Shown here one piece after another: positions 38,799 to 57,598 of a stretch of DNA of 64,000 bases. The stretch is taken from positions 192,001 through 256,000 of the forward strand of contig CBDAON010000004.1 of NCBI GenBank assembly GCA_965198065.1, given 5' to 3'. Source of the DNA: Longimicrobiales bacterium (GTDB lineage Bacteria > Gemmatimonadota > Gemmatimonadetes > Longimicrobiales > Gaopeijiaceae). The notes below the pieces were generated by a model that was not told where the DNA came from, searched no databases, and saw nothing but the letters and a program-made list of their open reading frames with translations. Positions within the stretch are counted from its first letter, which is position 1, and the number at the start of each line of letters is the position of its first letter. The translations under genes and the position numbers were made by a program.

Positions 38799-39353
38799 AT
38801 GACGATTAAGAGTGACCGATGGATCCGGCGGATGGCCGAGGAGCACGGCATGATCGAGCCGTTCGAGCCAGGCCAAGTGCGGAAGGGGACGATATCATAC
38901 GGCCTCTCCTCCTACGGATACGACATCCGAGTCGCTCCTGAGTTCAAGGTCTTCACGAACGTCCACAGCGTTGTCGTGGATCCGAAGGTCTTCGACGAGC
39001 GGTCCTTCGTAGACGTGCCCGCGTCCGAGTGCATCATCCCCCCAAACTCGTTCGCGCTCGCGCGGACCGTAGAGTTCTTCCGCGTCCCCCGCGACACGCT
39101 GGTGCTCTGCGTGGGGAAGAGTACGTACGCGCGTTGCGGGATCATCGTGAACGTGACCCCACTCGAGCCGACCTGGCGGGGCTACCTCACCCTCGAGATT
39201 TCGAACACGACGCCGCTTCCCGCGAAGATCTACGCGAACGAGGGGATCGCTCAGCTCCTCTTCTTCCAGGGTGACGAGGAGCCGGAGATCGCGTACGAGG
39301 ACCGGGGGGGGAAGTACCAAGACCAGAAGGGGGTCACGCTGCCGAAGCTCTAG
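38799..39353 (+). CDS. dcd: dCTP deaminase
   Basis: [53 protein letters not shown]. Confidence 0.97.
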
Positions 39354-39387
39354 CGTGCCCTGAACCAGCGAGCTAAAGCTCCCAGCA

Positions 39388-39534
39388 TTGTACAACAACA
39401 ACTTAGGGGATTCTAGGCATCCGGCCGGATGCTAGGTAGGGCACTCCTAGGGCACAATCTTTTCACCACTGTATCCGCCCCCCGAATTCGAGGGGCGTCC
39501 GCGGCGAAAAACGCTAGGTCGCTGGATGGACACC
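39388..39534 (+). repeat. Long direct repeat, copy A (att-arm-like module)
   Basis: Near-identical to 42275-42419 from ttgtacaacaacaacttag to ggatggacacc; weaker similarity extends left to about 39355. Confidence 0.92.
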
Positions 39535-39579
39535 TCACCACGTAATCCTCGCCTCGTCGAACGTCTCCGATCATGGCAG

Positions 39580-39625
39580 CCTGCCTCCTCGTCGGGGGCG
39601 GCTTTACCCGCTAAGCTACAGGGGC
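39580..39625 (-). pseudogene. Degenerate tRNA 5' fragment (Arg-like)
   Basis: Minus strand GCCCCTG-TA-GCTT-AGCGGGTA-AAGC (acceptor 5' strand plus paired D-arm), then a damaged anticodon arm; no T-arm. Confidence 0.5.
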
Positions 39626-39746
39626 GTGACGGATGACGAATCCGAGGAGTCAGCCTAGAAGGGTCAACGGAAACCCGCCCGCATGTGTCCCCGCCAGTAG
39701 CACGGCTGCCCGTCTCCGCGTTGGTTCCCCCGACTAGAGGTCCTCC

Positions 39747-42092
39747 TTGCTGCGCACTTCCGGCCTTACAGCGGCCCTCGGCATCATGGTGCTCGTGATT
39801 CAGTTTCCGACACGGCTCATCGCCCAGGACCCGCAAAGCCGCGCCGACCAGGACCAACAGGACACGACTCCGGCCGCCCCGTCAACGCCAGAACCACTGG
39901 TGCCGGCGGCCGACCGAAGCGGCTCACCACTCCCGTCCCTGCTGGCCCATCGCATGGATGGGGGCACCGAGATCACCCTGGACGGGAGAGTCGAGGAGGA
40001 CGCCTGGCAGGGCGCGATACCCATCACGGACTTCACGCAGCAGGAGCCCGTGGAAGGGGCAGGCCCCAGTCAACCCACGGAGATTCGGGTCGTCTACGAC
40101 GAGGACAACCTCTACATCGGGGCGGTCATTTACGACGATCCGGAAGGGATCCTCGCCTATCAGCGTCAGAGGGACGCGGGGCTCGGGACGGATGACCGGT
40201 TCATGTGGATCCTGGACACGTTCCATGACGGGCGGACGGGCTACTTCTTCGAGATCAACGCCGCGGGCCTCATGGGAGACGGCATCCTCGGCGGAGGCGG
40301 GGGTCTGAACAAGTCGTGGGACGGGATCTGGGAAGCGCGGACGGCCCGTCGCCCGGACGGATGGTCGGCCGAGATCCAGATCCCCTTCCGCACTCTCAAT
40401 TTCGATCCTGCCCAGGATACGTGGGGCATCAACTTCCAGCGGACGATCCGACGACGGCAGGAGGAGATTCTCTGGAGGGGCTGGCTCCGGAACCAGGGGC
40501 TGTTCAGCCCCGTGTACGCCGGAGACCTGACCGGCTTGGAGGGACTCTCCCAGGGCGTGGGGTTGGAGGCCGTACCCTCCACCATCGTGAGCTGGAAGAG
40601 GACTCCGGACGACGAGGATCCTTCGACCTTCCCCCGGGACCTCAGCCTCGATATCAACTACAGCATCACGTCGAGCCTCCGGGCTTCGCTCTCGGTAAAC
40701 ACGGACTTCGCCGAGGTGGAAGCGGACCAGCGCCAGGTCAATCTCACCCGATTTCCTCTGTTCTTCCCCGAGCGGAGGGACTTCTTCCTGGAGGGATCGG
40801 GAGTCTTCTCCTTCGCGCCGAGGAGCGGCCCCGATCCATTCTTCTCTCGGCGGATCGGGCTCAGGAACCGCCAGGAGGTGCCCATCGACTTCGGAGCCCG
40901 CATGACCGGCCAGGCGGGCATCTACGAGCTGGGCTTCTATCAGATCCGTACCGGACGGGCCACCCCGGATCCGGCGGAGGAGGGAGGGTCGCCAGTGCGA
41001 GGTCCCGTCGAGGACTTTACCGTGGCCCGTGTGAAGCGCCGGATCCTCGAGCAGTCCAGCATCGGAGCCGTTTACACGCGGCGAGCCACCGGGAAGGACG
41101 AGGAAGGATTCGCTCCACCGGACCGCCACACGGTCGGCGTGGACCTGGAGCTCGCTACACGGAGCTTCCTCGGGCAAAACAACGCCGAGATGGAGGCGTT
41201 CCTCCTGTGGAACTCGGACCCCGAGCGGGGCACGGACCGCTCCTTCAACGACCTTTCCGCCCGGGGTTTCCGGCTGAACTTCCCGAACGATATCTGGTCC
41301 GGCCATCTCTCGTACCGGGAATTCGGCGACCACTACAATCCAGAGGTGGGATTCGTGACCCGCAACGACTTCCGCCGGGTCGAGCCCAACATTGGATGGT
41401 CACCGCGACCGGAGAGCGTCCCCTGGCTACGGCGGCTCAACTTCGAGGTCCAGTTCCGCTACCTGACGGAGCTGGGCACGGAGATTCTGGAGGAGCGAGA
41501 GTGGTCGCTCGGGGTCCTGGGGCTGGATTTCGAGAGCGGCGACAACGTGAATATCGGCGTTACCAACACGTACGAATACCTGGACCGACCCTTCGAGATC
41601 TCGGATGGAATCGACATCGGCGCGGGCGGCTATTCCACGTGGAATTACGGAATCCAGGCAGGCACGACGGGAAGGCGGACGGTTTCCGTCCGCGGCTCCC
41701 TCGACCTCGGGGACTTCTGGAACGGTGAGCGGACACGGGTCCAGGGGCGCGTCACGGTGCGGCCCGGGCCCGGCGTCAGCCTGTCTACGGACGTCGAGCA
41801 CAATGACGTGACGCTCCCTCAGGGAAGTTTCGAGGCGAGCGTTTACGGTGTGGACGCCGAGTGGACCCCCTCGCCCTGGGTCAGCGCCATCGGTGAGCTG
41901 CAGTACGACGACCAGAGCAAGATCGTTGGTCTCTACTCCCGACTCCGATGGATCGTAAGTCCCGGAAACGAGGTGTTCCTCGTGTATACACACAACTGGG
42001 AGAATTACGGGACCGGGCTCCTGGAGGGACGGGATCTCGCGACCCGCTCCCAAGGCGCATCCCTCAAGGCGAACTATACGTATCGCTTCTGA
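39747..42092 (+). CDS. Secreted CBM9-like plus DUF5916-type protein (probable outer-membrane beta-barrel C-terminus)
   Basis: Signal peptide; ITLDGRVEE..W, YDEDNLY, WDGIWE, GWSAEIQIPFRTL, VNTDFAEVEAD..VNLTRFPLFFPERRDFFLEG; ends KANYTYRF. Confidence 0.85.
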   Translation: MLRTSGLTAALGIMVLVIQFPTRLIAQDPQSRADQDQQDTTPAAPSTPEPLVPAADRSGSPLPSLLAHRMDGGTEITLDGRVEEDAWQGAIPITDFTQQEPVEGAGPSQPTEIRVVYDEDNLYIGAVIYDDPEGILAYQRQRDAGLGTDDRFMWILDTFHDGRTGYFFEINAAGLMGDGILGGGGGLNKSWDGIWEARTARRPDGWSAEIQIPFRTLNFDPAQDTWGINFQRTIRRRQEEILWRGWLRNQGLFSPVYAGDLTGLEGLSQGVGLEAVPSTIVSWKRTPDDEDPSTFPRDLSLDINYSITSSLRASLSVNTDFAEVEADQRQVNLTRFPLFFPERRDFFLEGSGVFSFAPRSGPDPFFSRRIGLRNRQEVPIDFGARMTGQAGIYELGFYQIRTGRATPDPAEEGGSPVRGPVEDFTVARVKRRILEQSSIGAVYTRRATGKDEEGFAPPDRHTVGVDLELATRSFLGQNNAEMEAFLLWNSDPERGTDRSFNDLSARGFRLNFPNDIWSGHLSYREFGDHYNPEVGFVTRNDFRRVEPNIGWSPRPESVPWLRRLNFEVQFRYLTELGTEILEEREWSLGVLGLDFESGDNVNIGVTNTYEYLDRPFEISDGIDIGAGGYSTWNYGIQAGTTGRRTVSVRGSLDLGDFWNGERTRVQGRVTVRPGPGVSLSTDVEHNDVTLPQGSFEASVYGVDAEWTPSPWVSAIGELQYDDQSKIVGLYSRLRWIVSPGNEVFLVYTHNWENYGTGLLEGRDLATRSQGASLKANYTYRF

Positions 42093-42274
42093 ACTGCCGG
42101 GGGTGCGTCAAGCATACTACTGCCCTTGTCGGTATTCGCTGACGATTGATGCCCTTACCGCCTTCTCGGGTGAGTCCACCGGGCCGAAAATCGCACTTCC
42201 AAGATTGACCTCTCGGTGGGCTGTCGCTAGTCTCACTCCAGGTGCTTTGAGCCAGCGGGGCCAAGCGTACGGCT

Positions 42275-42419
42275 TTGTACAACAACAACTTAGTGGATTC
42301 TAGGCATCCGGCCGGATGCTGGGTAGGGCACTCCTAGGGCACAATCTTTTGACTACTGTATCCGCCCCCGAATCGAGGGGCGTCCGCGCCGAAAAACGCT
42401 AGGTCGCTGGATGGACACC
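42275..42419 (+). repeat. Long direct repeat, copy B
   Basis: Near-identical to 39388-39534. Confidence 0.92.
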
Positions 42420-42468
42420 GCGCTAAGGGAATCTCTGGAGAGGTAAAGCGCGTCGATGACCGCTTGAG

Positions 42469-42885
42469 TCACCGTACGAAATCAGGCGACCCGACGCTCA
42501 CCCTGAAGTCTACCCCGCGCGTTAGCGTGTTCACCATGATGCAGCCGTTCTCCGCGATTCTCACGAGGCGCTCAAAGAGGTCGCTGTCGGCGCAGTCGCC
42601 GGTTACCTCCAGGGAGACGGAAGTGAATCGTGAGGGGCTATCGGCGAGAGTTCCCGTCACGAGGGTCTCTACGTCCGAAACGTCGGCCTCGCGCGCCCTG
42701 ATCGCTGCGAGCATGGTGCTCATGAAGCAACCTGCGACCGCTGCCAAGAAATACTCGCCGCCCATGGGACCTTCGTCGGCGCCGCCTTTGGCCTCGGGCC
42801 GGTCGACGAGCACTTTGTGCTCTCGAATGGTCGCCTCGCTCGTCGACGGGCCAACCTGACGGACTCGGACCTTCATCTCTGCCAC
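42469..42885 (-). CDS. OsmC family protein
   Basis: DRPEAKGGADEGP..GE.FLAAVAGC and second Cys in AENGCIM.NTL. Confidence 0.85.
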   Translation of the reverse strand: MAEMKVRVRQVGPSTSEATIREHKVLVDRPEAKGGADEGPMGGEYFLAAVAGCFMSTMLAAIRAREADVSDVETLVTGTLADSPSRFTSVSLEVTGDCADSDLFERLVRIAENGCIMVNTLTRGVDFRVSVGSPDFVR

Positions 42886-42988
42886 GGTCCGCTCATTCTC
42901 CGGGCGGCATCAAATCGAGTCGCAACGCGCTCCAGCCGCACGTCCGCTCCCGCCTGACGGAGCCGCTCGGCCATCCAGGTCGTGGAGC

Positions 42989-43028
42989 GCGTCCGCGGCG
43001 GAAAACGCTAGGTGGCCGGATGGACACC
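42989..43028 (+). repeat. Partial repeat copy C, abutting the TPR gene stop
   Basis: gcgtccgcggcggaaaacgctaggtggccggatggacacc matches the right part of copies A and B; similarity to copy A continues into the gene end. Confidence 0.85.
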
Positions 43029-46000
43029 TCACCACGTAACCCCCGCCTCTTCGAGTAACGCCTGGTATCTGGGGTCGTCGCGGAGGAGGTCCGGATGGTT
43101 CGAGCGTGCGTCGGCAACGGCCGCGCGTCCGTATAATCCCGCTCGAACGATCTCTTCGAACAGCGCGAGGGCGCGCTCAGATTGCCCGGTCTCAGTGGAC
43201 ATCCAAAACGAACCCCCGGAGACCGTTGGCGGCTGACCAGTTTGGTGGTAGCGTATCGCCGCTTCATACGCGTCTCTCCCGGCTTGAACGTCAACATTGG
43301 CGATTTCCAGATACCTACCAAATGCTTCCAGCCCCTCCTCGTATTCGCCGACCTCCAACAGCGCCTTAGATAGCTCAAACCAGCCATTTTGCCACTCTGG
43401 GGCCAAGGCTATGGTTTCGTAGTGTTGTTCGATCGCCTCGTCAATACGCCCAGCTACCGACAAGGCCCAACCCAGAACCATAGAATGCGCCTGGGAGACC
43501 GGATCGAGTTCAAAAGCCCGCTCTGCATGAATTACTGCCTCGATCGCGCTTCCAGTGCTGTAAGAGTGACCAGCGTACCATTGGTGCGCTTGGGCATATC
43601 CTGGGTTCAGATCGATCGCCAACTCGAACTCCTGTTCAGCTCTTTCCCATTCGCCAAGGTTCTGCAACCCGTAGGCCAGAGAAGCGCGAGCCATGCCGAG
43701 GGAGGGGTCCAGTTCCACGGCTCTGCGGGCTGCGATGAGTCCCTGGTCAACATTCGGCCGCTCATCTTGGCGGGTATCGGTCAAATCGTATAAGCTCACC
43801 AAGAAATAGGGGTCCGCGAGCCCGGAGTACGCTTCTGCGTACTCCGAATCCAGCTCTATCGCAAGCTCGAACTCGGTGATCGCATCGCGAAGTCTCTGCA
43901 CGGTGCGTTGGCTAAAGAAAAACCGGAGTGAGTCCCATCTTTAGTTGAAATTGAAGCGGCCTCCAACCTCAGGTAACGTGGGTGTGCGACCACACCACGG
44001 GATCACAAGAGAGGAAGGAGGGCCACCGATGGGAAGGATGCCAAGGCTCGTCGAGCGGGGGCAAGAAGGACCGGCGGCTCGGGGAACCGAGGGAGGTGAG
44101 TTGGGAGGAGATCGAGGCGCTGGAGCTGGACCCTCGGGTGGAGCTGATCCGGCAGCTGATTCCGCTGGGACTGGCGGAGGTGGGCCGGATGCTCGAGGAG
44201 GAAGTGGAGCAACTGGCGGGGCAACGTCACGCCAGGAAGACCGAGGACGATCGACATTGCCGGCATGGGCATAACCCAGGGTCGGTGCGGTTGGGCGGCC
44301 AGCGGCATCCGGTGCGAGTACCGCGGGTGCGAGGCCCGGCCGGAGAGTCGAGGCTGGCGGCGTATGAGCAGCTGCATGGCTCGCCCGGCGAGATGGACGA
44401 GGGGCTGTTTCGGAAGGTGCTGCTCGGGATCTCGTGCCGGGACTACGAGGCAGCGGTCGAGGCGGTGCCTGGAGCCATCGGGCTGTCGAAGTCGACGGTC
44501 TCGCGGGAGTTCAAGAAGGCCACGGCCGCGAAGCTGAAGGAGTTTCAGGAGCGGGACCTCTCGGGTTACGACGTGGGGTGGCACTCGTCCTGGACGGCAA
44601 GAGCTTTGCCGAGGACGAGATGGTCGTCGCGCTCGGGGTGACGACCAAGGGGGACAAGGTCTTCCTCGGGTTCGTCCAGACCGACACGGAGAACGCCGTG
44701 GTGATCCGATCCTTCCTTCGGAGTCTGAAGGACCGAGGTCTCGACCTGTCGGCCGGAGCGCTCGTGGTGATCGATGGAGCCCGCGGTCTCCGGAGCGGCG
44801 TCCTGGCGGTCTTCAAGGGACAGGTGCTCATCCAGCGGTGCCAGTGGCACAAGCGGAAGAACGTGATCTCGTATCTGCCGAGAGCGGAGCAGAAGGGCTG
44901 GCGCCAGCGTCTGCAGCGCGCCTACCAGCGGCCCACGTACGAAGAGGCCGTCAAGGACCTCAAGGCCCTGCGCCAGGAGCTCGCGGGGGTGAACCAGTCC
45001 GCGGCGGCCAGTCTCGATGAGGGGTTCGAGGAGACCCTCACCCTCCACCGGTTGGGAGTCTTCCCCCTGGTCGGCCAGTCGCTCAAGACCACCAACGTGC
45101 TCGAGTCCGTGAACGCCCTGGCCGAGCAGAGGTGCGGACGCGTGGACCACTGGAAGAACTCGAGCCAGAAGCACCGATGGCTCGCGACCACGCTCCTGGA
45201 GATCTAGTCACGGCTCCGGAGGTTGCTCGGGTACCGACACCTCCCGCTCCTCAGGGCCGCGATCCAGAAGGACCTCGGGATCACCCTTCCCGAGAGCCGT
45301 TCACATGCTGTCGCCTGAGACGGAGGCCGCTCCAGTTTCAACTAACTTTGGGATTGACTCAAAAAACGGCCTCGCTGATACGCCTGGAACGCCTCAGGAA
45401 CGGTGGTCCCCTGTGCCACGAGCGGCGTCTCTGCCCCTCCGGCCAGCGCGACCTGAAGTTCGTCCGTAACTGCGCGGGCTAATGCGTCCTGAATCGCGAA
45501 GATGTTCGAAGCTGGGCCGTCGATTGCCTCCGACCACAGAACAGCCCCAGTTGCAGCCTCTACAAGCCGAGGCCGGACACGAACCGTCTCACCCACCTGC
45601 TGAAGGTCGCATTCCAGCACTGTCGCAACATCCAACGTCTCCGCGATTTCCTCGATGTCGGCGTTCAACTCAAGCGCGATGACTGAGGTAATGCCAATGA
45701 CCTTGAGGCCGGGCAGCTGCGTCAGGCCACCAATGATCCCTTCGGCGAAACCTTGAGTGAGAGGGGTCTGATCTCCTGGCGCGCTCGCATCGGTGCATGG
45801 CATCACCGCGACCGACGGCTCAATGGACGCGGGAGCCTCAGCGGTCGTGGATCCCGTTCCATCGCCGAACATGACCCAGCCCACCCCTACGCCGATCAAC
45901 ACGAAGAAAGCCCCGACTCCCCCCAGGGTGGCTTTCTTCCACGTAAAGAGACGGGACGGGACCGTGGACTCCACTTGATCCCCCGTTTCCTGTGCCGGGG

Positions 46001-46265
46001 CTGTGCTCTTGGCGCGTTGGGCCTCGTGTCCCGGACCGCCTTCCTGCACGAACGCGGTCGCGAGCACGATCGGGAGCCCAACGATTAGCAGACCCAGCGC
46101 AAGCGTAGGGAACCACTCCGGTAGTGCCGTGGTGTCAGTTAGCTCCCCTGCCACCTGCAGCACGACCCAACTAGCCACAGCATAGATCCCCAGCACCTGC
46201 CAGAGACTACGGCGGTGGATCTCGCCGATGAAACGCTTGAGAGGATTGTCGGAGGGGTCAGCCAT
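43029..46265 (-). pseudogene. Membrane-anchored TolB-N-like/TPR protein gene split by IS256-family copy 1
   Basis: 5' part 46265-45361 (EIHRRSLWQV, TM helices, SVAVMP) rejoins in frame with 3' part 43917-43029 (TPRs, ends LEEAGVTW) as AYQRGRFFFSQRT; 597 aa when reconstructed. Confidence 0.9.
43926..45360 (+). mobile_element. IS256-family insertion sequence, copy 1 (inactivated transposase)
   Basis: About 38-bp imperfect terminal inverted repeats (gagtgagtcccatctttagttgaaa... / ...tttcaactaactttgggattgactc); 8-bp target duplication aaaaaccg/aaaaaacg; motifs LDG, VIDG..GL, QRCQWHK, KTTN.LES.N. Confidence 0.93.
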
Positions 46266-46321
46266 ACGTCCCGCCGGTTAACGGCCTTTGAGGGCTCTGC
46301 TCAGTCGGGTGGTAGGGTCGG

Positions 46322-47912
46322 TCACTGATCCGGCACCACCTGCCTCAACTCCTCGAAGAAGTTCTGGACCAGGATAAGGCGCTGTGGCTCGGCAGCGCCC
46401 TCCTCGGCGCAACCTCCGAAGGGACGCACCATTAAGAACCGCTCGCCGTCTGAGCTGACATCGTAGAAATAGTTGCTCGGGCCGACCGGGTATCCAATTG
46501 GGATGGTGAACAGCATCTCTGGGGTCCGGGCCTGACCCGATGCAGGATCGAACCGGGCGGACAGCAGCCTACGCTCATCATCCACGAAGAACAACTCGTC
46601 GCCACTCTTCGCCCAAAGCGGCTCGAATCCCCCGTCGGTCGAGACACGCACTCTGGTCGAGTCCACGTTGGGAAACGGACGAATGAACACTTCGTCACGA
46701 CCTGTCTCGTTCGAGCTATACGCGAGCCAGCGACCGTCTGGAGACAGGGCCGGTCCCTGCTCCGCAAACTCGGCTGAGGCGACCAGGGATACTGCGGAGC
46801 TGTCCACCCCGGGACAGAAGCCGAGAATGTCTCGCAGGCCCAGACCCTCCGATGCTGTCGCGGCGCTGCGGAACACCAACCACTCGCCATCAGAACTCCA
46901 CGATCCCTGGGTGACGCCACGTTCGTCATCGAGTATGAGCACCGCGTCTCCAGTCCCGTCCGCACGCCTGGACCAAATGTTCGACGCCGAGAAGTACGTT
47001 ACGCTTTGCCCATCGGGCATCCAGAATGGCCTGACGTCCGGGTCCTCCGAGAAGGTGATTCTCTCTTCCGGGCCATCGGGCAACTGCTTGATACGAACAT
47101 CAATGTTCCCATCGACTATGCTATTGAAGACGATCTTCGTTTCATCCGGGGACAGCCTCCATCCGTAGTTGCCTACTGTAGGGGCAAACGCGTACCCCGG
47201 ATCGACGGGCGTAGCCTGGCCGGAGCGAGTGACCCATACGAACTCGTTCAATGACGCTGAGGCGGACCCTTCCACGTAGAGGAGCGTCCCGTCGGAACCA
47301 AGGACCATGTCTGCCATACCTGAGTTGCCGAGATTTGCCGTTCTAACACCCTCGAGGAGTGGGACTGAGGAGCCCGCAAGCTGCAACGCAGTGATGTCGA
47401 AAGGTTGGGCCAAGACAGCGCCGTCGGCGCGGACGTAGACGATGTGTCCGGTGGGGACGTACCAAGCTCGTGCGACTCCTGAGAAGAGGACTTCTGATGA
47501 TAGATCCTCCAGATCCACGATGTGGAGCTGGTTGGTATCAAGCGTACAGCCCACTCCTGGGCAAGCGACAACAAGTGCCCCTCGTGCGCCTGGGAGACCG
47601 TGAACCCAAGTGATCGACACCTCTTGCTCGCTAGCCCCAAAGACCACGTTGAGCGGCGCTCCTCCGTCTTCTGAGATCCGCGCAATCCGACGGGTGGACA
47701 CACCCTCCCCAGTACCAAACTGCTCATAGAGAATCGTACCGTCGTCGAGCCAAGAGAGACCTACGAGGCCAGCCGTGCTCGGTGCGTCCTCCGCGATCCT
47801 GATGGGAGAGCCCCCAACGAGTGGACGCTTGAAGAGTTCTGTTCCGATCGAATAGGCGATCCAGTCACCGTCGGGCGAGTACACGACGTCCCTGGCCCCC
47901 TCCGTTCCCTGG
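46322..47912 (-). pseudogene. 5'-truncated PD40/TolB-like beta-propeller gene (probable C-terminal part of a Ser/Thr kinase-propeller protein)
   Basis: Repeated SPDG.W/R motifs, LSPDGRWLAYSSNETGRDEV, YDVSSDGERFLMV, ends VQNFFEELR; start replaced by the IS end. Confidence 0.85.
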
Positions 47913-49346
47913 GAGTCAATCCCAAAGTTAGTTGAAACTGGAGCGGCCTCCGTCTCAGGCGACAGCATGTGAACGGCTCTCGGGAAGGGTGATCCCGAGG
48001 TCCTTCTGGATCGCGGCCCTGAGGAGCGGGAGGTGTCGGTACCCGAGCAACCTCCGGAGCCGTGACTAGATCTCCAGGAGCGTGGTCGCGAGCCATCGGT
48101 GCTTCTGGCTCGAGTTCTTCCAGTGGTCCACGCGTCCGCACCTCTGCTCGGCCAGGGCGTTCACGGACTCGAGCACGTTGGTGGTCTTGAGCGACTGGCC
48201 GACCAGGGGGAAGACTCCCAACCGGTGGAGGGTGAGGGTCTCCTCGAACCCCTCATCGAGACTGGCCGCCGCGGACTGGTTCACCCCCGCGAGCTCCTGG
48301 CGCAGGGCCTTGAGGTCCTTGACGGCCTCTTCGTACGTGGGCCGCTGGTAGGCGCGCTGCAGACGCTGGCGCCAGCCCTTCTGCTCCGCTCTCGGCAGAT
48401 ACGAGATCACGTTCTCCCGCTTGTGCCACTGGCACCGCTGGATGAGCACCTGTCCCTTGAAGACCGCCAGGACGCCGCTCCGGAGACCGCGGGCTCCATC
48501 GATCACCACGAGCGCTCCGGCCGACAGGTCGAGACCTCGGTCCTTCAGACTCCGAAGGAAGGATCGGATCACCACGGCGTTCTCCGTGTCGGTCTGGACG
48601 AACCCGAGGAAGACCTTGTCCCCCTTGGTCGTCACCCCGAGCGCGACGACCATCTCGTCCTCGGCAAAGCTCTTGCCGTCCAGGACGAGTGCCACCCCAC
48701 GTCGTAACCCGAGAGGTCCCGCTCCTGAAACTCCTTCAGCTTCGCGGCCGTGGCCTTCTTGAACTCCCGCGAGACCGTCGACTTCGACAGCCCGATGGCT
48801 CCAGGCACCGCCTCGACCGCTGCCTCGTAGTCCCGGCACGAGATCCCGAGCAGCACCTTCCGAAACAGCCCCTCGTCCATCTCGCCGGGCGAGCCATGCA
48901 GCTGCTCATACGCCGCCAGCCTCGACTCTCCGGCCGGGCCTCGCACCCGCGGTACTCGCACCGGATGCCGCTGGCCGCCCAACCGCACCGACCCTGGGTT
49001 ATGCCCATGCCGGCAATGTCGATCGTCCTCGGTCTTCCTGGCGTGACGTTGCCCCGCCAGTTGCTCCACTTCCTCCTCGAGCATCCGGCCCACCTCCGCC
49101 AGTCCCAGCGGAATCAGCTGCCGGATCAGCTCCACCCGAGGGTCCAGCTCCAGCGCCTCGATCTCCTCCCAACTCACCTCCCTCGGTTCCCCGAGCCGCC
49201 GGTCCTTCTTGCCCCCGCTCGACGAGCCTTGGCATCCTTCCCATCGGTGGCCTCCTTCCTCTCTTGTGATCCCGTGGTGTGGTCGCACACCCACGTTACC
49301 TGAGGTTGGAGGCCGCTTCAATTTCAACTAAAGATGGGACTCACTC
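47913..49346 (-). mobile_element. IS256-family insertion sequence, copy 2 (inverted, no target duplication)
   Basis: Reverse complement of copy 1, with a 1-bp indel and one substitution noticed; flanks ttccctgg / tggttggg do not match. Confidence 0.93.
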
Positions 49347-49842
49347 TGGTTGGGGCCTCGTCAAAGCGTTCGCTCCGCCTTTCGGCCTGCCGGTAGTAGT
49401 TCACGAGGTCCCTCCGAAGCTCAACATCTTCGATAAGGGTCAACCGGCCTGAACTGACCAGCTCGTCAAACGTCGCCTACGTGAGAGGCACATTCCGCAT
49501 CAAGGCCGCGAACGCGACCGCATTCAGGACCGCCATCGTATCGATGGACTGTCCTCTAGGAGCGTCGAGAAACGCGAGAACCTTGTGCGCCGCATCCATC
49601 ATCTCGCGACTCTCGGACAGGATCGTTCGGAGGGCCCGCCCGTTCGCTTCAAAGTCCTGAGCTAGGCGCTCGAGATAAAGTGCCTCAAGGCGCTGTTCTT
49701 CATTGCCTTGTCGCCAGCCCTCGGCCCAAAGGGCGGCTGATACGCCGAGCATGATCACCAGCAACTCTCCAGCCAAACGGAGTCCGAGTGAGGCCCACGC
49801 CCTGGTTCGCCCCGGCATGGACTTAGCGCCCCCGTCCGACAT
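49347..49842 (-). pseudogene. Integron cassette 2 gene: N-terminal TM, helical protein (DUF6090-like), in-frame TAG and IS truncation
   Basis: GELLVIMLGVSAALW..W; the frame continues past TAG (49479-49477) as ATFDELVSSGRLTLIEDVELRRDLVNYY until the IS end. Confidence 0.7.
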
Positions 49843-49898
49843 GCCTGTCCCCCTTCGCCTCGTTGCTCAGCCTTCGATCCGAACGATCATGAGATGCC

Positions 49899-49960
49899 GT
49901 CTAACGTCTCGCCGCTCAGCTGCCGCGCACAGCGCGGGCAGCTGCAGCGGCTTGTTAGCT
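49899..49960 (-). other. Integron attC recombination site (62 bp)
   Basis: Minus strand AGCTAAC-aagccgctgcagctgcccgcgc-tgt-gcgcggcagctgagcggcgagac-GTTAGAC; imperfect palindrome with unpaired bases on the R''-side arm; upstream gene stop TAA lies within R''. Confidence 0.92.
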
Positions 49961-50296
49961 GTCGTCGCCCCGCGAGTCGTCTAGCGCGACGTCGTATAGC
50001 GGTTGGACGTCCACTCGATCCCCGAGGCACTCGCCCATGACCTCTTTGTGCTCCTCATCGATCGCGTGCGTCGACCGAGCGAATGCCTCTCTCCCGCGGT
50101 CGAAGTCGGCCGCCTCCATCGCGTACACGAGGATGGGCCCGTCGACCGTCTGGAGAACGAACGCTTGCTCGTGGCTAATCGTCTCCTCAACGAACGTTGC
50201 CCGGACTTCGTCGGCCCGCGTCGAAAGTTCAGCTAGCCATGCTCGCAACCGGGCCTCTTTGCTCGGCTTTATTCGTCGCAAACTCACGCGCAGCAT
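49955..50296 (-). CDS. Integron cassette 1 gene, 113 aa hypothetical protein (DUF6176-like)
   Basis: ATG with ggag RBS, 43 bp after the G of the core site GTTAGCT; stop inside attC. Confidence 0.8.
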   Translation of the reverse strand: MLRVSLRRIKPSKEARLRAWLAELSTRADEVRATFVEETISHEQAFVLQTVDGPILVYAMEAADFDRGREAFARSTHAIDEEHKEVMGECLGDRVDVQPLYDVALDDSRGDDS

Positions 50297-50332
50297 GTGC
50301 TTGCTCTCCCTGTTCCGCGCCAGCTTTCGTAC

Positions 50333-50400
50333 AGCTAACAAGAAATCGACTGAACTGCGTAATAGGGGCAACGCTGCAGATGCCCGCAACGTTTTGACCG
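50333..50400 (-). other. Putative attI site
   Basis: Minus strand ttacgcagttcagtcgatttctt-GTTAGCTGT; core is complementary over 9 nt to ACAGCTAAC at the cassette attC; no hairpin upstream; lies 3' of intI. Confidence 0.65.
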
Positions 50401-50546
50401 CGCCGGACGTTGCTTCGCCCGTCGCAACTTCTGGGCCGGCAGGTACTTTCCGCCGGCACGCACGCCGTCGCACGTCCGATTATGCCGTGGGGAGAGGCAG
50501 CCTATCACCGTGTGTTCGCGTCGGGCATGGCCGGTCTTCGTGACGC

Positions 50547-50729
50547 TCAGAGTAGGATTCGGTCCGCGGGGCTGCGGACGGCACTGGGTCCACGGTTCAG
50601 GACGTGCGTATAGATCATGGTGGTGCTCACGTCGCGGTGGCCGAGCAATTCCTGGACGGTGCGAATGTCGTGGCCATCCTCGAGTAGATGGGTCGCGAAG
50701 GAGTGACGGAACGTGTGACAGCTCGCCCG
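50547..50729 (-). pseudogene. intI: Integron integrase 3' fragment (about 60 codons)
   Basis: [56 protein letters not shown], the characteristic IntI C-terminus. Confidence 0.9.
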
Positions 50730-50776
50730 ATGATCTGGGTGCTGGAGTGCTCGACCTACGGGGTGGTCGATTACCC

Positions 50777-51163
50777 TCACGCCATCAACCTGCTGGCGAG
50801 CACGGGCACCCACGCCTTCTTGATCTTGTGGATCACAGCCGAATCGGCCTGGGGTAACGCACCTTCGGTCGCGTCCCATAGCTCGTCGATGAGGTCCTGG
50901 TCGTAGGGCTCTTTGGGTAGCCCGAACTTGGCCGCGATGTCGATGGCTTTGAGTTGGTCTGCTGGCCTGGCTTCCTTCCTGCCGGTCGCGAACTCCTCAA
51001 GATGCGGTAGGCCCTTCTCTAGGATGTCGCGCATCGAGCCGCGGAGTTCGTTCGGGGGACGGCCTGGACGAGCATGGTTGCCGCCCTGTTTCAGCGCCCC
51101 ACCGTGCTTCTGCTTGACGAGCTTGTCCCCGGACTTGCTCCCGGACTTCCCATTGTCTCTCAC
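50777..51163 (-). CDS. Hypothetical phage-like protein (terminase small subunit-like N-terminus)
   Basis: Lys/Gly-rich start with [11 protein letters not shown] followed by helical [11 protein letters not shown]; family call is inference. Confidence 0.5.
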
Positions 51164-51239
51164 GCTACCGAAGATGCTGCAGCAATCGCTTGTTAGGCCG
51201 CGCGGCGCCCGCTAAGGGTACGGTGTTCTGGGTCACGAC

Positions 51240-51332
51240 GTGCCCTACCTGTGCCCTAGACATGCGGGCACCGCTGGATAGTCGTTGTGCCACAACGGTT
51301 ATTGCTCATAGAGCGTCTGCTTCCGTAGCAGG
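51240..51332 (+). other. att-arm-like module in opposite orientation with tRNA-like fragment
   Basis: GTGCCCTA x2 (51240-47, 51251-58), palindrome cgttgtg-c-cacaacg (51283-97), GCTC-ata-GAGC-g-TCTGC-ttCCGta-GCAGG (51304-32). Confidence 0.6.
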
Positions 51333-51533
51333 TGGCCGGTCGCCAGATCCCGCTTCCGGGTCGGTGGCGGTCGGCTCGGGGGCGCCTCTGTGGTAGCACG
51401 GATCAGGTAACGAGGAATCGGGGTGGCACCGGGCCGCGAGTCTTCCCATGTTGCCCCGGCCCGGTCTTGAAGCTGGCGCGTTAGTCTTCGCCCCGTCGCC
51501 GCTACCCACCTGCCCCCGGGCCCGGAGGAAGCA

Positions 51534-51975
51534 ATGGCGCGCCCAAGGCTACTTCGTGTTCCACTTGCCCTCGTGCTCGTCTCCTCGGCTACCGTTGCCT
51601 GCGCCGATGCCGGTACCGGAACCCAGGACGGCAGCATCACCGGGACGTACTCGTTGGTCATGGTCAACGGCTCCCCGCTGCCCGGCGTCGTGTACGAGGA
51701 GCCGGGGTACACAGAGGAGGTACTCGAGGGCTCCCCTCACGTTGCTCTCCGACAACACCTACCTGTCCCGATTCGTGTGGCGAGAGACCGAGGGCGGTGC
51801 TACGAGCACCGAAGAAGAAGTCGATGAGGGGACCTATGTCGTGTCCGGTAGTCAGATCACGTTCATAGACACGGAGGACCCGGACGATCCCATCCAGGGG
51901 GTGATCAGCGGGAACACGATTACGGTGACCTTCGAGGAGGACAGGGACCCGCAGGTCTGGGTCTTCGAGAAGTAG
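51534..51975 (+). pseudogene. Lipoprotein (lipocalin-like beta-barrel), frameshifted
   Basis: Signal ending TVAC, ITGTYSLVMVNGSPLP; shifts frame at the C4 run 51733-36 into LTLLSDNTY...GTYVVSGSQITF...WVFEK. Confidence 0.7.
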
Positions 51976-52268
51976 GGGCCCGATCTTCACGACTCCCCCT
52001 CGTTCTGGATGGCCCAGCGTTCGACCCGCGGCTCATTCTGAGTCACGGCCACCTCGTGCGCGTTCTCCAGTACGGCTATCGGCGTGGTCATGGGTCTGTA
52101 CTCGCTGGTTTCGGCGGCGCGATTTTTTCGCTTTGCTTGGTGGGGGGGCTCGTACCGTTCGACGCCACCTCCACGGCAGCGGCTTCCACTTCAACAGCAC
52201 ACGCCAACGACGGGTCACACCCACCGCTCTTTTTTTCTTCGTCCTCCCCCCTGGTAAAACCCCTCCCC

Positions 52269-52320
52269 TCGTGGCTCATTTTGAGTCGTGGACTCATTTT
52301 GGGTCGCGGCTTGTTTTTCG
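52269..52320 (+). repeat. Tandem 17-18 bp iteron-like repeats
   Basis: tcgtggctcattttgag / tcgtggactcattttggg / degenerate tcgcggcttgtttttcg. Confidence 0.6.
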
Positions 52321-52527
52321 CGGCCAGGATGCGCGAGCGCCGTTCAAACGCCTCCAGTCTCGTGACGGCCCGGTGTAACCAGCGGCCGTCTTGTCCGTCC
52401 TCTTCGGCGATCCTGGCGAGACCAGAGCGGCGGGCTCCCGTAGTTGGACACCGTTTTGTGCCATCGCGGCGTGCGAGCTGTGGTTCGGTTAAGCCAGGTA
52501 CAACTCAAGAGAGGTGAGATACCAACG

Positions 52528-53943
52528 ATGAAGGCAACCGCGATTGATGGACGCGAGATCGAACTTGACCAAGACGCACTCGACGCGTTGAGGCTGCGAC
52601 TCCGGGGGCCGGTGGCATTGCCTGGTGACGGCAGTTACGAGGAATCGCGCACGGTGTGGAACGAAATGATCGGCCGCAGGCCCGCCGTGGTAGTGCGGTG
52701 CCTCGGGGTTGCGGATGTGATCGCATGTGTGCAGTTCACGCGCGAACGGGATCGTTGCTCTGCATCAAGGGCGGAGGCCACAACATCGCAGGCCTAGCCA
52801 CGGCCGATGGTGCGCTGATGTTGGATATGTCGCTCATGCGCAGCGTGTGGGTGGACCCGAAGGGGCGAGTAGCTCATGCCCAGGCGGGCTGTCTGCTCGG
52901 CGACGTAGATCGCGAAACGCAGGTGCACGGACTTGCTGCGGTTCTCGGGTTCGTATCACTCACAGGCATCACAGGCCTCACGATGGGTGGCGGATTCGGC
53001 TACCTGACGAGGCGGTGGGGTTGGACGTCCGATAACGTAGTTGGCATGAACCTGGTGACGGCTGACGCGACGGTGGTGCGTGCGAGCAGTGAAGAGAACG
53101 CCGACCTCTTTTGGGGGCTGCGAGGTGGTGGCGGGAACTTCGGTGTTGTCACCGGCATCGACTACGCGCTTCACTCGGTCGGTCCAGAGGTCGTTGGAGG
53201 CGTGGTAGCCTGGCCCGCAAGTGAGGCTCCCGCCGTTCTGGAGCTTTACCGGACTCTCGCCAAGCAGGCTCCGGCCGAGCTCACCCTCGTCGCTTTGATC
53301 CGACCGGCACCGCCAGCGCCGTGGCTCCCGAAGGAAACTCACGGAAAACCGATCGTGGCTGTGTTGGCCTGCCACAGCGGGAGCATCGCGGACGGAGAGA
53401 ACGCCGTTGCTCCCATTAAGTCGTTCGGCAAACCGATCGGTGATGTGCTGGTCCGCCGGCCATACCTGCAGATGCAGTCGTTGTTAGATGCGACGCAACC
53501 CAAGGGACGGCGCTATTACTGGAAGAGCGAGTACCTTTCGCGCATTGAGCCGGAACTGTGCGGAAAGCTCGCGGAGCATGCTGCGAGAATCCGATCCCCG
53601 CACTCCGCCGTCATTCTGTTTCAGCTCGACGGCGCTCTGAACCAGTTTGGGAGCGATCACTACCCAGTTGGAAACCGGGACGCCCGCTACGTGGCTCAAC
53701 ATCGCAGGGTCGTGGGAGCACGCTGGCGAGGATGAGGCCAACATCCAGTGGGCGCGCGACGCATGGAACGACATGAGAGTGTTCTCCACTGGCGGCACCT
53801 ACATCAACTTCTTGACGGAAGACGAGGGTCCTGAGCGAACCCAGGCCGCGCTCGGCGGGGCAATCCAACGGCTTGCCGAGGTCAAGGCAAAGTGGGATCC
53901 AGAAAACGTGTTTCGCACGAACCGAAACATCAGGCCAGTGTGA
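52528..53943 (+). pseudogene. FAD-binding oxidoreductase (berberine-bridge-enzyme-like), two frameshifts
   Basis: Three frames: RTVWNEMI.RRPA / KGGGHN..GGGFGYL..DLFWGLRGGGGNFGVVT / YINFL..KAKWDPENVFR; shifts near 52750 and 53690. Confidence 0.88.
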
Positions 53944-54022
53944 GGGACTGCAGATCGTGCGACGATCATGAGCTCGCGTACACCGGGAAGAGGTCTAACC
54001 AAGCAAGGCGCACGGAGGTGGT

Positions 54023-54427
54023 ATGAAGGAACCTTTTCCGCCAAGCGAATCGGAGGTTACCCAGCTTCTTGTTGTTAGCGACCCCAAACGGTCGAAGACC
54101 TTTTATATAGACGTATTGGGGGCCGAACTGTACCGGGAGTACGGAGGTGACTCGTTAGTCCTTCGGTTCCTCGGCATGTGGCTTCTTCTGGTGAGCGGGG
54201 GTCCTCCGACTGAGGACAAGCCTGGAGTGACGTTCGCCCCGCCTGCGGACGGAAATCGGGTTGATCATCAACTGACGATCCGAGTGCCCGATTGCCGTGC
54301 CGCGTACGCTGCACTGAAATCCAAAGGAGCGCCGTTCCTCACACCTCCCTTTGATCGTGGAGGTGAGGTCCGATGTTTCTTCCGGGATCCAGACGGTCAC
54401 TTGTTGGAGATCAGTGAAGTGACCTAG
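54023..54427 (+). CDS. VOC/glyoxalase family protein
   Basis: LVVSD..RS..FY.DVLG, IRVPDC, FFRDPDGHLLEI. Confidence 0.9.
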   Translation: MKEPFPPSESEVTQLLVVSDPKRSKTFYIDVLGAELYREYGGDSLVLRFLGMWLLLVSGGPPTEDKPGVTFAPPADGNRVDHQLTIRVPDCRAAYAALKSKGAPFLTPPFDRGGEVRCFFRDPDGHLLEISEVT

Positions 54428-54496: not shown

Positions 54497-55420
54497 TCAG
54501 CCCAGGGTCGCGATCGTGGAGCGGACCGCGACCGCGCTTCTCTCCAGCTCCGAGCGCTCTTCAGCCGTCAGCTCGACCTCGACGATCTGCTCGAGCCCGC
54601 CCGCCCCGAGCTTGCAGGGTACGCCGAAGAAGATTCCGCTCTGGCCGTACTCGCCCTCGAGGTACGCTGCACAGGGCAGGATCCGCTTCTTGTCCTTCGC
54701 GATCGCTTCGGCCATCTGAACGGCGGCGGACGAAGGCGCGTAGTACGCGCTCCCGGTCTTCAGGAAGGCGACGATCTCGGCCCCGCCGCCGCGCGTGCGA
54801 TCGATCAGGGCCTCGATTCTGTCCTCCGACAGCAGCTGTCGGATCGGGATGCCGCTGATGGTCGTGTAGCTCACCAGGGGCACCATCGTGTCCCCGTGCC
54901 CCCCGAGAACCAGAGCCTGGATGTCTTCGACGCTTACCCCGAGCTCCGCCGCGATGAAGGTCCGATAGCGCGCTGTGTCGAGGACGCCGGCCATCCCGAT
55001 CACCCGCTCACGGGGAAAGCCCGTCGTCTTCATCGCCACGTAGGCCATCGCGTCGAGCGGATTCGACACCATGATGATGATTGAATCGGGCGCCACCCGT
55101 GCGATCTGCTCCGAGACGGACCGGACGATCTCAGCGTTCGTCTTGAGGAGGTCGTCCCGACTCATCCCCGGCTTCCGCGCAATCCCGGCCGTCATGATGA
55201 AGAGGTCCGAGCCCTCGGCGGCTCCGTATTCCGTAGCCCCCACGATGCGCGTGTCGAATCCCTCGACCGGCCCGCTCTGCCACTGATCGAGCGCTTTCCC
55301 CTGGGGAACGCCGTCCACCACATCGATGAGGACGACCTCACGGGCCAGCTCCGCCTCGGCCAGGCGCTGCGCACAGGTGGCGCCGACGTGCCCCGCGCCC
55401 ACGACGGTTATCTTCCTCAT
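54497..55420 (-). CDS. mdh: Malate dehydrogenase (LDH-like)
   Basis: [47 protein letters not shown]. Confidence 0.97.
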
Positions 55421-57295: not shown

Positions 57296-57598
57296 TCAGG
57301 ACCGAAGGCCCTTTCCCCGCCGGGCGACCCGCGTGCGAAGCTGCCTCGACGGCTTGAAGACGGGAACGAGCCGCGCGGCGACCCGTACCGTGTCTCCCGT
57401 GCGAGGGTTTCGCGCCTTACGGGCCTTGCGCGCTCGCACCCTGAAGGTCCCGAACCCTCGGATCTCTATGCTCTCCCCGTTGGTGAGGGCCTTCTTCACG
57501 GCGTTGAGGAACCCGTCCACGACCAGAGCGCAGTCCTTCTTCGTGACCCCGGGGCCGATCGCCCCGGAGACTTCCTCGACGAGGTCTGCTTTCGTCAT
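57296..57598 (-). CDS. HU/IHF family DNA-binding protein
   Basis: MTKADLV, IEIRGFGTF, ARNPRTG, PVFKPS. Confidence 0.95.
   Translation of the reverse strand: MTKADLVEEVSGAIGPGVTKKDCALVVDGFLNAVKKALTNGESIEIRGFGTFRVRARKARKARNPRTGDTVRVAARLVPVFKPSRQLRTRVARRGKGLRS

Follow-up and report, generated by a model that had tools for sequence, protein, structure and literature searches.

What are the three copies of a box-and-tRNA module that lie between the dcd and mdh genes of this Longimicrobiales bacterium, and how did they come to be there? The window, a 64-kb stretch of the host genome (G000:C4:192001-256000), contains them as module A (39355-39534, minus strand), module B (42239-42419, minus strand) and module C (51240-51332, plus strand). 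An interpretation made earlier without database searches (the sequence-only reading) saw in them the attachment (att) ends of one family of tyrosine-integrase elements, with arm-like boxes, an integration host factor (IHF)-like motif and a tRNA-derived part, and this view is borne out by the association with tRNA genes and integrases described below. The explanation preferred here, with a probability of about two in three, is that the modules are orphan attR-type ends of islands with P4/IntS-like integrases, which landed off target in the dcd-mdh gap and then decayed. They likely represent relics of a mobile-island type that is less common but already known, and not a new system.

Each module contains two GTGCCCTA boxes in tandem. 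Exact GTGCCCTA-N3-GTGCCCTA pairs occur three times in the window, precisely where the sequence-only reading had placed them, and 0.01 are expected (mean of 100 shuffles, with up to two mismatches allowed). The common layout that it described is also present, with a motif 31, 31 and 20 bp beyond the pairs of A, B and C, respectively (TAAGTTGTTGTTGTACAA in A and B, TAGTCGTTG in C). A fourth exact pair in the host genome, at C4:164387, is followed by a similar motif and then, 71 nt on, by an intact tRNA-Arg(CCT) gene. The distance on the same strand from box pair to tRNA position 1 is 72 nt in A and B and 73-98 nt in relatives, and from the start of the motif to tRNA position 1 it is 22 nt in A, B and the Arg copy of the host genome and 23-25 nt in four relatives. 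The spacing in module C is shorter than in A and B, which is consistent with a deletion. The tandem boxes are probably arm-type sites for the N-terminal domain of an integrase, judging from where they lie, from the presence of PF13356 in the linked integrase (below) and from the biology of λ and P4. The IHF consensus is WATCAA-N4-TTR, from which the module motif deviates at two of nine specified positions; a TAA-N4-TTG-like motif stands at the matching distance in A, in B and at 6 of 15 related ends, and the TAAG motif may be the site of a bending protein (IHF or HU). A and B are close to each other in sequence (89% identity over 180 bp), whereas C has little in common with them outside the boxes and motif.

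The degenerate tRNA-like segments reported beyond the motifs are real, though weak. Among the tRNAs of the host genome itself, the best score of both A and B is with the 5′ part of tRNA-Val(TAC), and in each case 1 of 300 mononucleotide shuffles equals it. Module C matches the D-stem and anticodon arm of tRNA-Arg (0 of 300 shuffles), and the sequence beyond is not tRNA-like (86 of 300). These matches point to Val(TAC) as the origin of the tRNA parts of A and B and to Arg as that of C. The anticodon arm is retained in C, while the tRNA similarity of A and B ends at nt 29 and 32, respectively. No tRNA was found by ARAGORN over the whole window, or by Rfam at A and C (at A it gave three chance matches under the gathering score). 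The statement that the window holds neither an intact tRNA nor a cognate integrase is correct on both counts, with the qualification that tyrosine recombinase sequence is present there in non-cognate form (XerD and an IntI fragment).

The nature of these ends is clearest in relatives that carry complete islands. In genome G017, an island pieced together from two overlapping contig ends runs from a displaced tRNA-Pro 5′ half through arms, alpA, a gene for a 409-aa integrase and cargo to a box pair, the motif and a restored tRNA-Pro; its inner flank and boxes match A and B closely. The integrase gene follows the attL arm and has the AlpA gene upstream, and its product carries the domains PF13356 (Arm-DNA-bind_3), PF22022 (Phage_int_M) and PF00589 (Phage_integrase), with a match to PRK09692 below the cut-off. 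At least 154 homologs were found at E ≤ 1e-40 among 7998 candidates scored. A displaced tRNA 5′ half (nt 1 to 39-44) lies upstream at 17 of 22 homolog loci and comes from tRNA-Pro, Ala, Lys, Arg(CCT), Thr or Val(TAC); four of the other loci are N-terminally incomplete and have no tRNA piece, and at the last (L168, genome G121) an inverted tRNA 3′ half takes the place of the 5′ half, that is, the core is flipped inside the clade. All 18 near-full-length clade integrases examined thus have a tRNA piece upstream. A restored tRNA was found downstream, with both ends mapped, in six of nine elements checked, about 5-18 kb away, and the boxes at these six ends are of GTGCCCTA type in five and GGACCCCA in one. 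In an integrase tree, the 20 clade rows stand apart from the six host-genome integrases included, and that fork is drawn open (88/99).

In relatives, the paired box is a marker for the att ends of islands with P4/IntS-like integrases, and it is the island that provides the 5′ half of the target tRNA. The order and spacing seen in modules A, B and C are those of the restored-tRNA end of the complete islands (pair, motif about 22 nt before the tRNA, 5′ part), and all three are therefore the same, attR-type end, made up of arms, TAAG motif and element-supplied tRNA half. As the sequence-only reading noted, the inverted ends do not fit an ordinary attL/attR pair, and they are not such a pair; since the three copies are the same end of different elements, their opposite orientation needs no new mechanism. 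Its suggestion that they bracket one 12-kb unit is not supported, the three ends being of one type and representing at least two tRNA specificities.

The motif scan that had been proposed as a check links the box to tRNA genes. In GTDB, 80 listed loci with flanks were analysed, with 533 windows in the same loci as controls: among these listed matches, an intact tRNA lies within 200 bp of the exact pair in 21 of 80 (controls, 4 of 533), a number that rises to 35 of 80 when tRNA fragments are counted (controls, 10 of 533), and an integrase-like open reading frame (ORF) is present in 18 of 80, a count without control. A scan of the family gave 21 matches outside the host genome, in 16 of 313 other genomes, and 20 of the 21 adjoin a tRNA or tRNA half. 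Twelve are followed, 73-98 nt on, by an intact tRNA in 5′ orientation to them and two by a 5′ half only; three follow a displaced 5′ half, three are at Lys 3′ ends and one is internal. A search of 300 family genomes with the DNA of module A gave no match, and a metagenome scan with an A/B-specific 20-mer found one locus, at which the element end is that of G017. Viral contigs contain 15 loci with the pair, three of them with an integrase-like ORF; neither ARAGORN nor BLAST shows the 5′ layout at any of these pair loci, and no clade integrase was found on the viral contigs.

The synteny comparison, also proposed earlier, shows that the DNA around the modules (Table 1) is an insert. In the congener G001, about 96 bp separate dcd from the end of mdh, and in G004 the two genes are likewise neighbours, without a tRNA between them in either genome; the region 39354-54427 has therefore been acquired. 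No tRNA lies directly after dcd in G001 or in 29 relatives (two weak calls, at relaxed score, are 0.5-1 kb off). Of the modules in this DNA, A has its end at the left junction and C sits 3 kb inside the right junction. Further small genes also lie within the acquired 15.07 kb, and several acquired pieces have close paralogs by other att-like ends in the genome.

Table 1. Features of the dcd-mdh region (window coordinates)
Feature	Position	Strand	Remarks
Host dcd, left flank	38799..39353	+	
Acquired mosaic	39354..54427		15.07 kb between dcd and mdh; 62.7% GC vs 67-68% in flanks; CTAG at both junctions
Module A, tRNA part	39355..39383	-	decayed tRNA-Val(TAC) nt 1-29; ends at dcd stop codon (left junction of acquired DNA)
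Module A, TAAGTTGTTGTTGTACAA motif	39388..39405	-	TAAG...GTACAA, IHF-like
Module A, box pair	39437..39455	-	tandem GTGCCCTA, 11-bp period; same pair at mapped island ends in relatives
DUF5916/CBM9-like gene	39747..42092	+	sole cargo between A and B
Two TGCCCT boxes	42121..42155	+	face module B from outside; 29 of 19255 equal-sized genome tiles hold two on one strand
Module B, tRNA part	42239..42270	-	tRNA-Val(TAC) 5′ part to nt 32; decay stronger than in A
Module B, TAAGTTGTTGTTGTACAA motif	42275..42292	-	TAAG...GTACAA
Module B, box pair	42324..42342	-	tandem GTGCCCTA
OsmC-like gene module	42420..42985	-	98% identical copy at C4:2444326, adjoining undecayed tRNA-Val(TAC) 5′ fragment
TPR-repeat gene	43029..46265	-	interrupted by IS256-family copy; 87% paralog C4:1894274-1896109
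IS256-family (Mutator transposase) copy 1	43921..45360	+	
IS256-family copy 2	47913..49351	-	inverted relative to copy 1
Integron remnant	49899..50732	-	IntI C-terminal fragment 50547-50732, DUF6176 gene, attC-like hairpin 49899-49960; not cognate to modules
Module C, box pair	51240..51258	+	tandem GTGCCCTA
Module C, TAGTCGTTG...CAACG motif	51279..51297	+	resembles motif at Arg-type ends of relatives (L202)
Module C, tRNA part	51304..51332	+	decayed 5′ part of tRNA-Arg, with anticodon arm and remnant of D-stem; nt 5-19 apparently deleted for the most part
Host mdh, right flank	54497..55420	-	

The sequence of events may have been as follows. The P4/IntS-like tyrosine integrase likely makes its cut in the anticodon loop of tRNA genes, which thereby receive a new 5′ half; the N-terminal arm domain of the enzyme would bind the boxes, and IHF or HU the motif. 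Elements aimed at Val(TAC) and Arg would have integrated at secondary sites in the dcd-mdh gap, module A being the mark of a secondary-site insertion at the dcd stop codon and module B perhaps the point where stacked elements meet. The integrase ends would have been stripped away later, as IS256 copies inserted, cassettes were captured and cargo was exchanged. Off-target insertion has a precedent, because in genome G133 the same end type is found both at an intact tRNA-Arg (L221) and, as a sister end broken at the anticodon loop, within coding sequence (L229); the two differ at 3 of 133 positions. The two TGCCCT boxes outside B, which attracted attention post hoc, could possibly be the remnant of a neighbouring element's opposite arm.

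Several observations weigh against this explanation. The tRNA similarity of A and B (to nt 29 and 32) falls short of the nt 38-44 reached at fresh junctions, and no attL arm is visible at the right junction (54427). Uniform decay does not account for the differences between A and B, which affect 11 of 32 positions in the tRNA part but 5 of 90 in the arm portion (Fisher p = 1.5e-4); such a pattern would follow if the inner block had recently been duplicated or converted, and equally if the tRNA half had become dispensable in this lineage. Among the GTDB matches listed, only 2 of the 21 intact tRNAs have the 5′ layout and most sites are on the 3′ side, and the box is therefore a general arm-type motif, not specific to the clade. 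Finally, the reversed pattern, used as a control whose tRNA context was not inspected, gave 17 matches vs 25 real ones in the family-scan genomes, and the evidence is therefore the tRNA association and not the raw match count.

The same end type could instead have formed at genuine tRNA genes and been brought to the dcd-mdh gap passively, by IS256-driven rearrangement and exchange of cargo between islands. Material for this exists in the host genome, which contains IS256 in about 17 near-identical copies, along with more than 30 tRNA-half fragments, scattered and in many cases distant from their genes (Leu-TAA, Cys, Arg-CCG, Val-TAC, Ala); the OsmC module by B has its 98% copy beside an undecayed Val(TAC) 5′ fragment, and the truncation of A stops before the normal crossover. 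However, A ends exactly at the host junction, apparently with no loss of host DNA relative to G001, no IS end lies at either junction, and the case of G133 shows direct off-target insertion by the same end type, so that passive carriage is rather unlikely. Somewhat less likely again is that A and B are ends of integrase-less mini-islands, mobilised in trans, from a branch of the 5′-restoring elements that left tRNA targets, for example as the 2.9-kb A-B unit with its DUF5916 gene; arms and motif would be kept, the tRNA half would be decaying, and insertion would take place outside tRNA genes, as at the dcd stop codon. If true, this would be a tRNA-targeting integrase turning into one of low specificity. 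The concentration of A/B differences in the tRNA part, the non-tRNA junction of A and the two facing TGCCCT boxes outside B would all suit it. On the other hand, the inner 58 bp, which are not part of the att site, are equally conserved (three differences), a pattern that selection on the arms fits less well than a recent duplication or conversion; a tRNA piece is kept upstream of all the near-full-length clade integrases; and the module has just two copies in the host genome and none in the 300 family genomes. Nor does the host genome, which is 87.6% complete and has 34 PF00589 (tyrosine recombinase) matches in 3 Mb, contain a close cognate integrase of the clade (best, 29-34% identity).

It is highly improbable, and largely refuted, that the left and right copies are the inverted ends of a single 12-kb unit that inverts or transposes by some unknown system. 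A and B are indeed oriented oppositely to C and have the boxes in common with it, but they differ from it in tRNA relic and share little else except the motif, C lies back from the edge of the acquired DNA, with 3 kb of further mobile sequence beyond it, and all three copies fit a single end type of islands already known. No A/C or B/C pair occurs among the 25 longest inverted repeats, and the matched inverted terminal repeats of an invertible segment or composite transposon were not found. Integron recombination sites were also considered. The attC consensus is an imperfect palindrome, RYYYAAC...GTTRRRY, and a consensus scan of 39-55 kb gave a candidate only near 49899 and none at the modules. 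IntI was rejected as the cognate enzyme, as only a C-terminal fragment of it is present and the modules have no attC features.

The sequence-only reading regarded the system as uncharacterised, which is not supported: the layout is that of tDNA islands carrying a 5′ fragment, which make up 159 of 3919 islands in Table 1 of the Islander paper (PMC4383910) and are a class of 9 of 88 in a Sinorhizobium survey (PMC11476347). The complete relatives resemble such islands in their tyrosine integrase, their crossover in the anticodon arm, and the displaced 5′ fragment and restored tRNA at opposite ends; the window copies, in contrast, have a decayed tRNA part and no integrase, intact tRNA or partner end. 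Islander filters would reject them. The combination of an intact tDNA and a displaced 5′ fragment is absent from the window and present in six of nine related elements, and a tyrosine integrase of neither Xer nor IntI type, present in the relatives, is likewise absent there (only XerD and the IntI fragment were found). Lacking integrase and tRNA, the window copies fall outside the Islander definition and are therefore filed as relic ends, not islands. With regard to integrase-less elements mobilisable in cis, and to the tandem island arrays that the Islander paper describes (PMC4383910), B resembles an internal junction and the A-B unit an integrase-less cassette, but there is no tRNA anchor here and the opposite arm at B consists of two 6-bp boxes only.

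The IntS protein of KplE1 is described as a heterobivalent integrase that works with arm-type sites, IHF and a recombination directionality factor (PMC2951348). The G017 integrase, the candidate cognate enzyme, has the same P4/IntS-type set of integrase domains and an AlpA gene upstream, but KplE1 uses the 3′ end of argW, whereas the clade restores the 5′ half at 17 of 18 loci with a tRNA piece and does so at six isoacceptors. For mycobacteriophage Fionnbharth, integration at secondary sites by a tRNA-targeting tyrosine integrase has been reported from experiments (PMC10865867); as in the window, the off-target sites are not tRNA genes and share only a few bases with the core, but they were demonstrated experimentally, whereas those discussed here are deduced from junctions.

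The dcd-mdh feature itself is a mobile-DNA scar, and the integrase clade is its useful by-product. With at least 154 proteins (E ≤ 1e-40), mapped att pairs at six isoacceptors, nearly fixed restoring of the 5′ half and one flipped member (L168), the clade offers testable integrase/att sets for Gemmatimonadota (per source labels). A literature search found nothing on such integrase/att sets in Gemmatimonadota and no description of the clade, the Islander/TIGER database and supplements being outside its scope. The clade also gives a handle on the interconversion of 5′- and 3′-restoring layouts and on the need for an element-supplied tRNA promoter. TAnnnT, a candidate for a -10 box supplied by the element, occurs at only 7 of 15 related ends, and promoter-like sequence beside B failed a consensus scan. 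The G017 island also encodes a 518-aa ORF (L011:1625-3181) that looks terminase-like by eye, with no Pfam match, and the island is possibly a phage satellite.

Some minor features of the window and its genome may be recorded. The XerD gene (43-942) and a gene of the HU/IHF family (57296-57598) are ordinary host genes. Both IS256 copies are apparently frameshifted, the transposase match being split over two frames (43982-45207 for the first). In the integron remnant, the cassette lies downstream of the intI fragment and co-oriented with it, the first bases of the DUF6176 cassette are complementary to the start of its own attC-like hairpin, and the next cassette is cut by IS256. A 40-bp repeat around the OsmC module (42380-42419 and 42989-43028) was considered as a cassette site and rejected; it is the 3′ flank of the TPR family and has other copies in the genome. 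The tail of the TPR gene family adjoins att-like ends at several genome sites (C4:678230, C4:1894268 and C3:45666). A second family of paired boxes, of GTGCCGTA type, is found at C4:678133, 2713236, 2803705, 2807011 and 2813075, and four of these five pairs run into a 3′ half of tRNA-Leu(TAA) or tRNA-Cys that is remote from the gene itself. In the congener G001, the dcd gene (L176:2169-3704) has an in-frame insert of about 330 aa before a cysteine codon, which matches Intein_splicing (E 9e-12).

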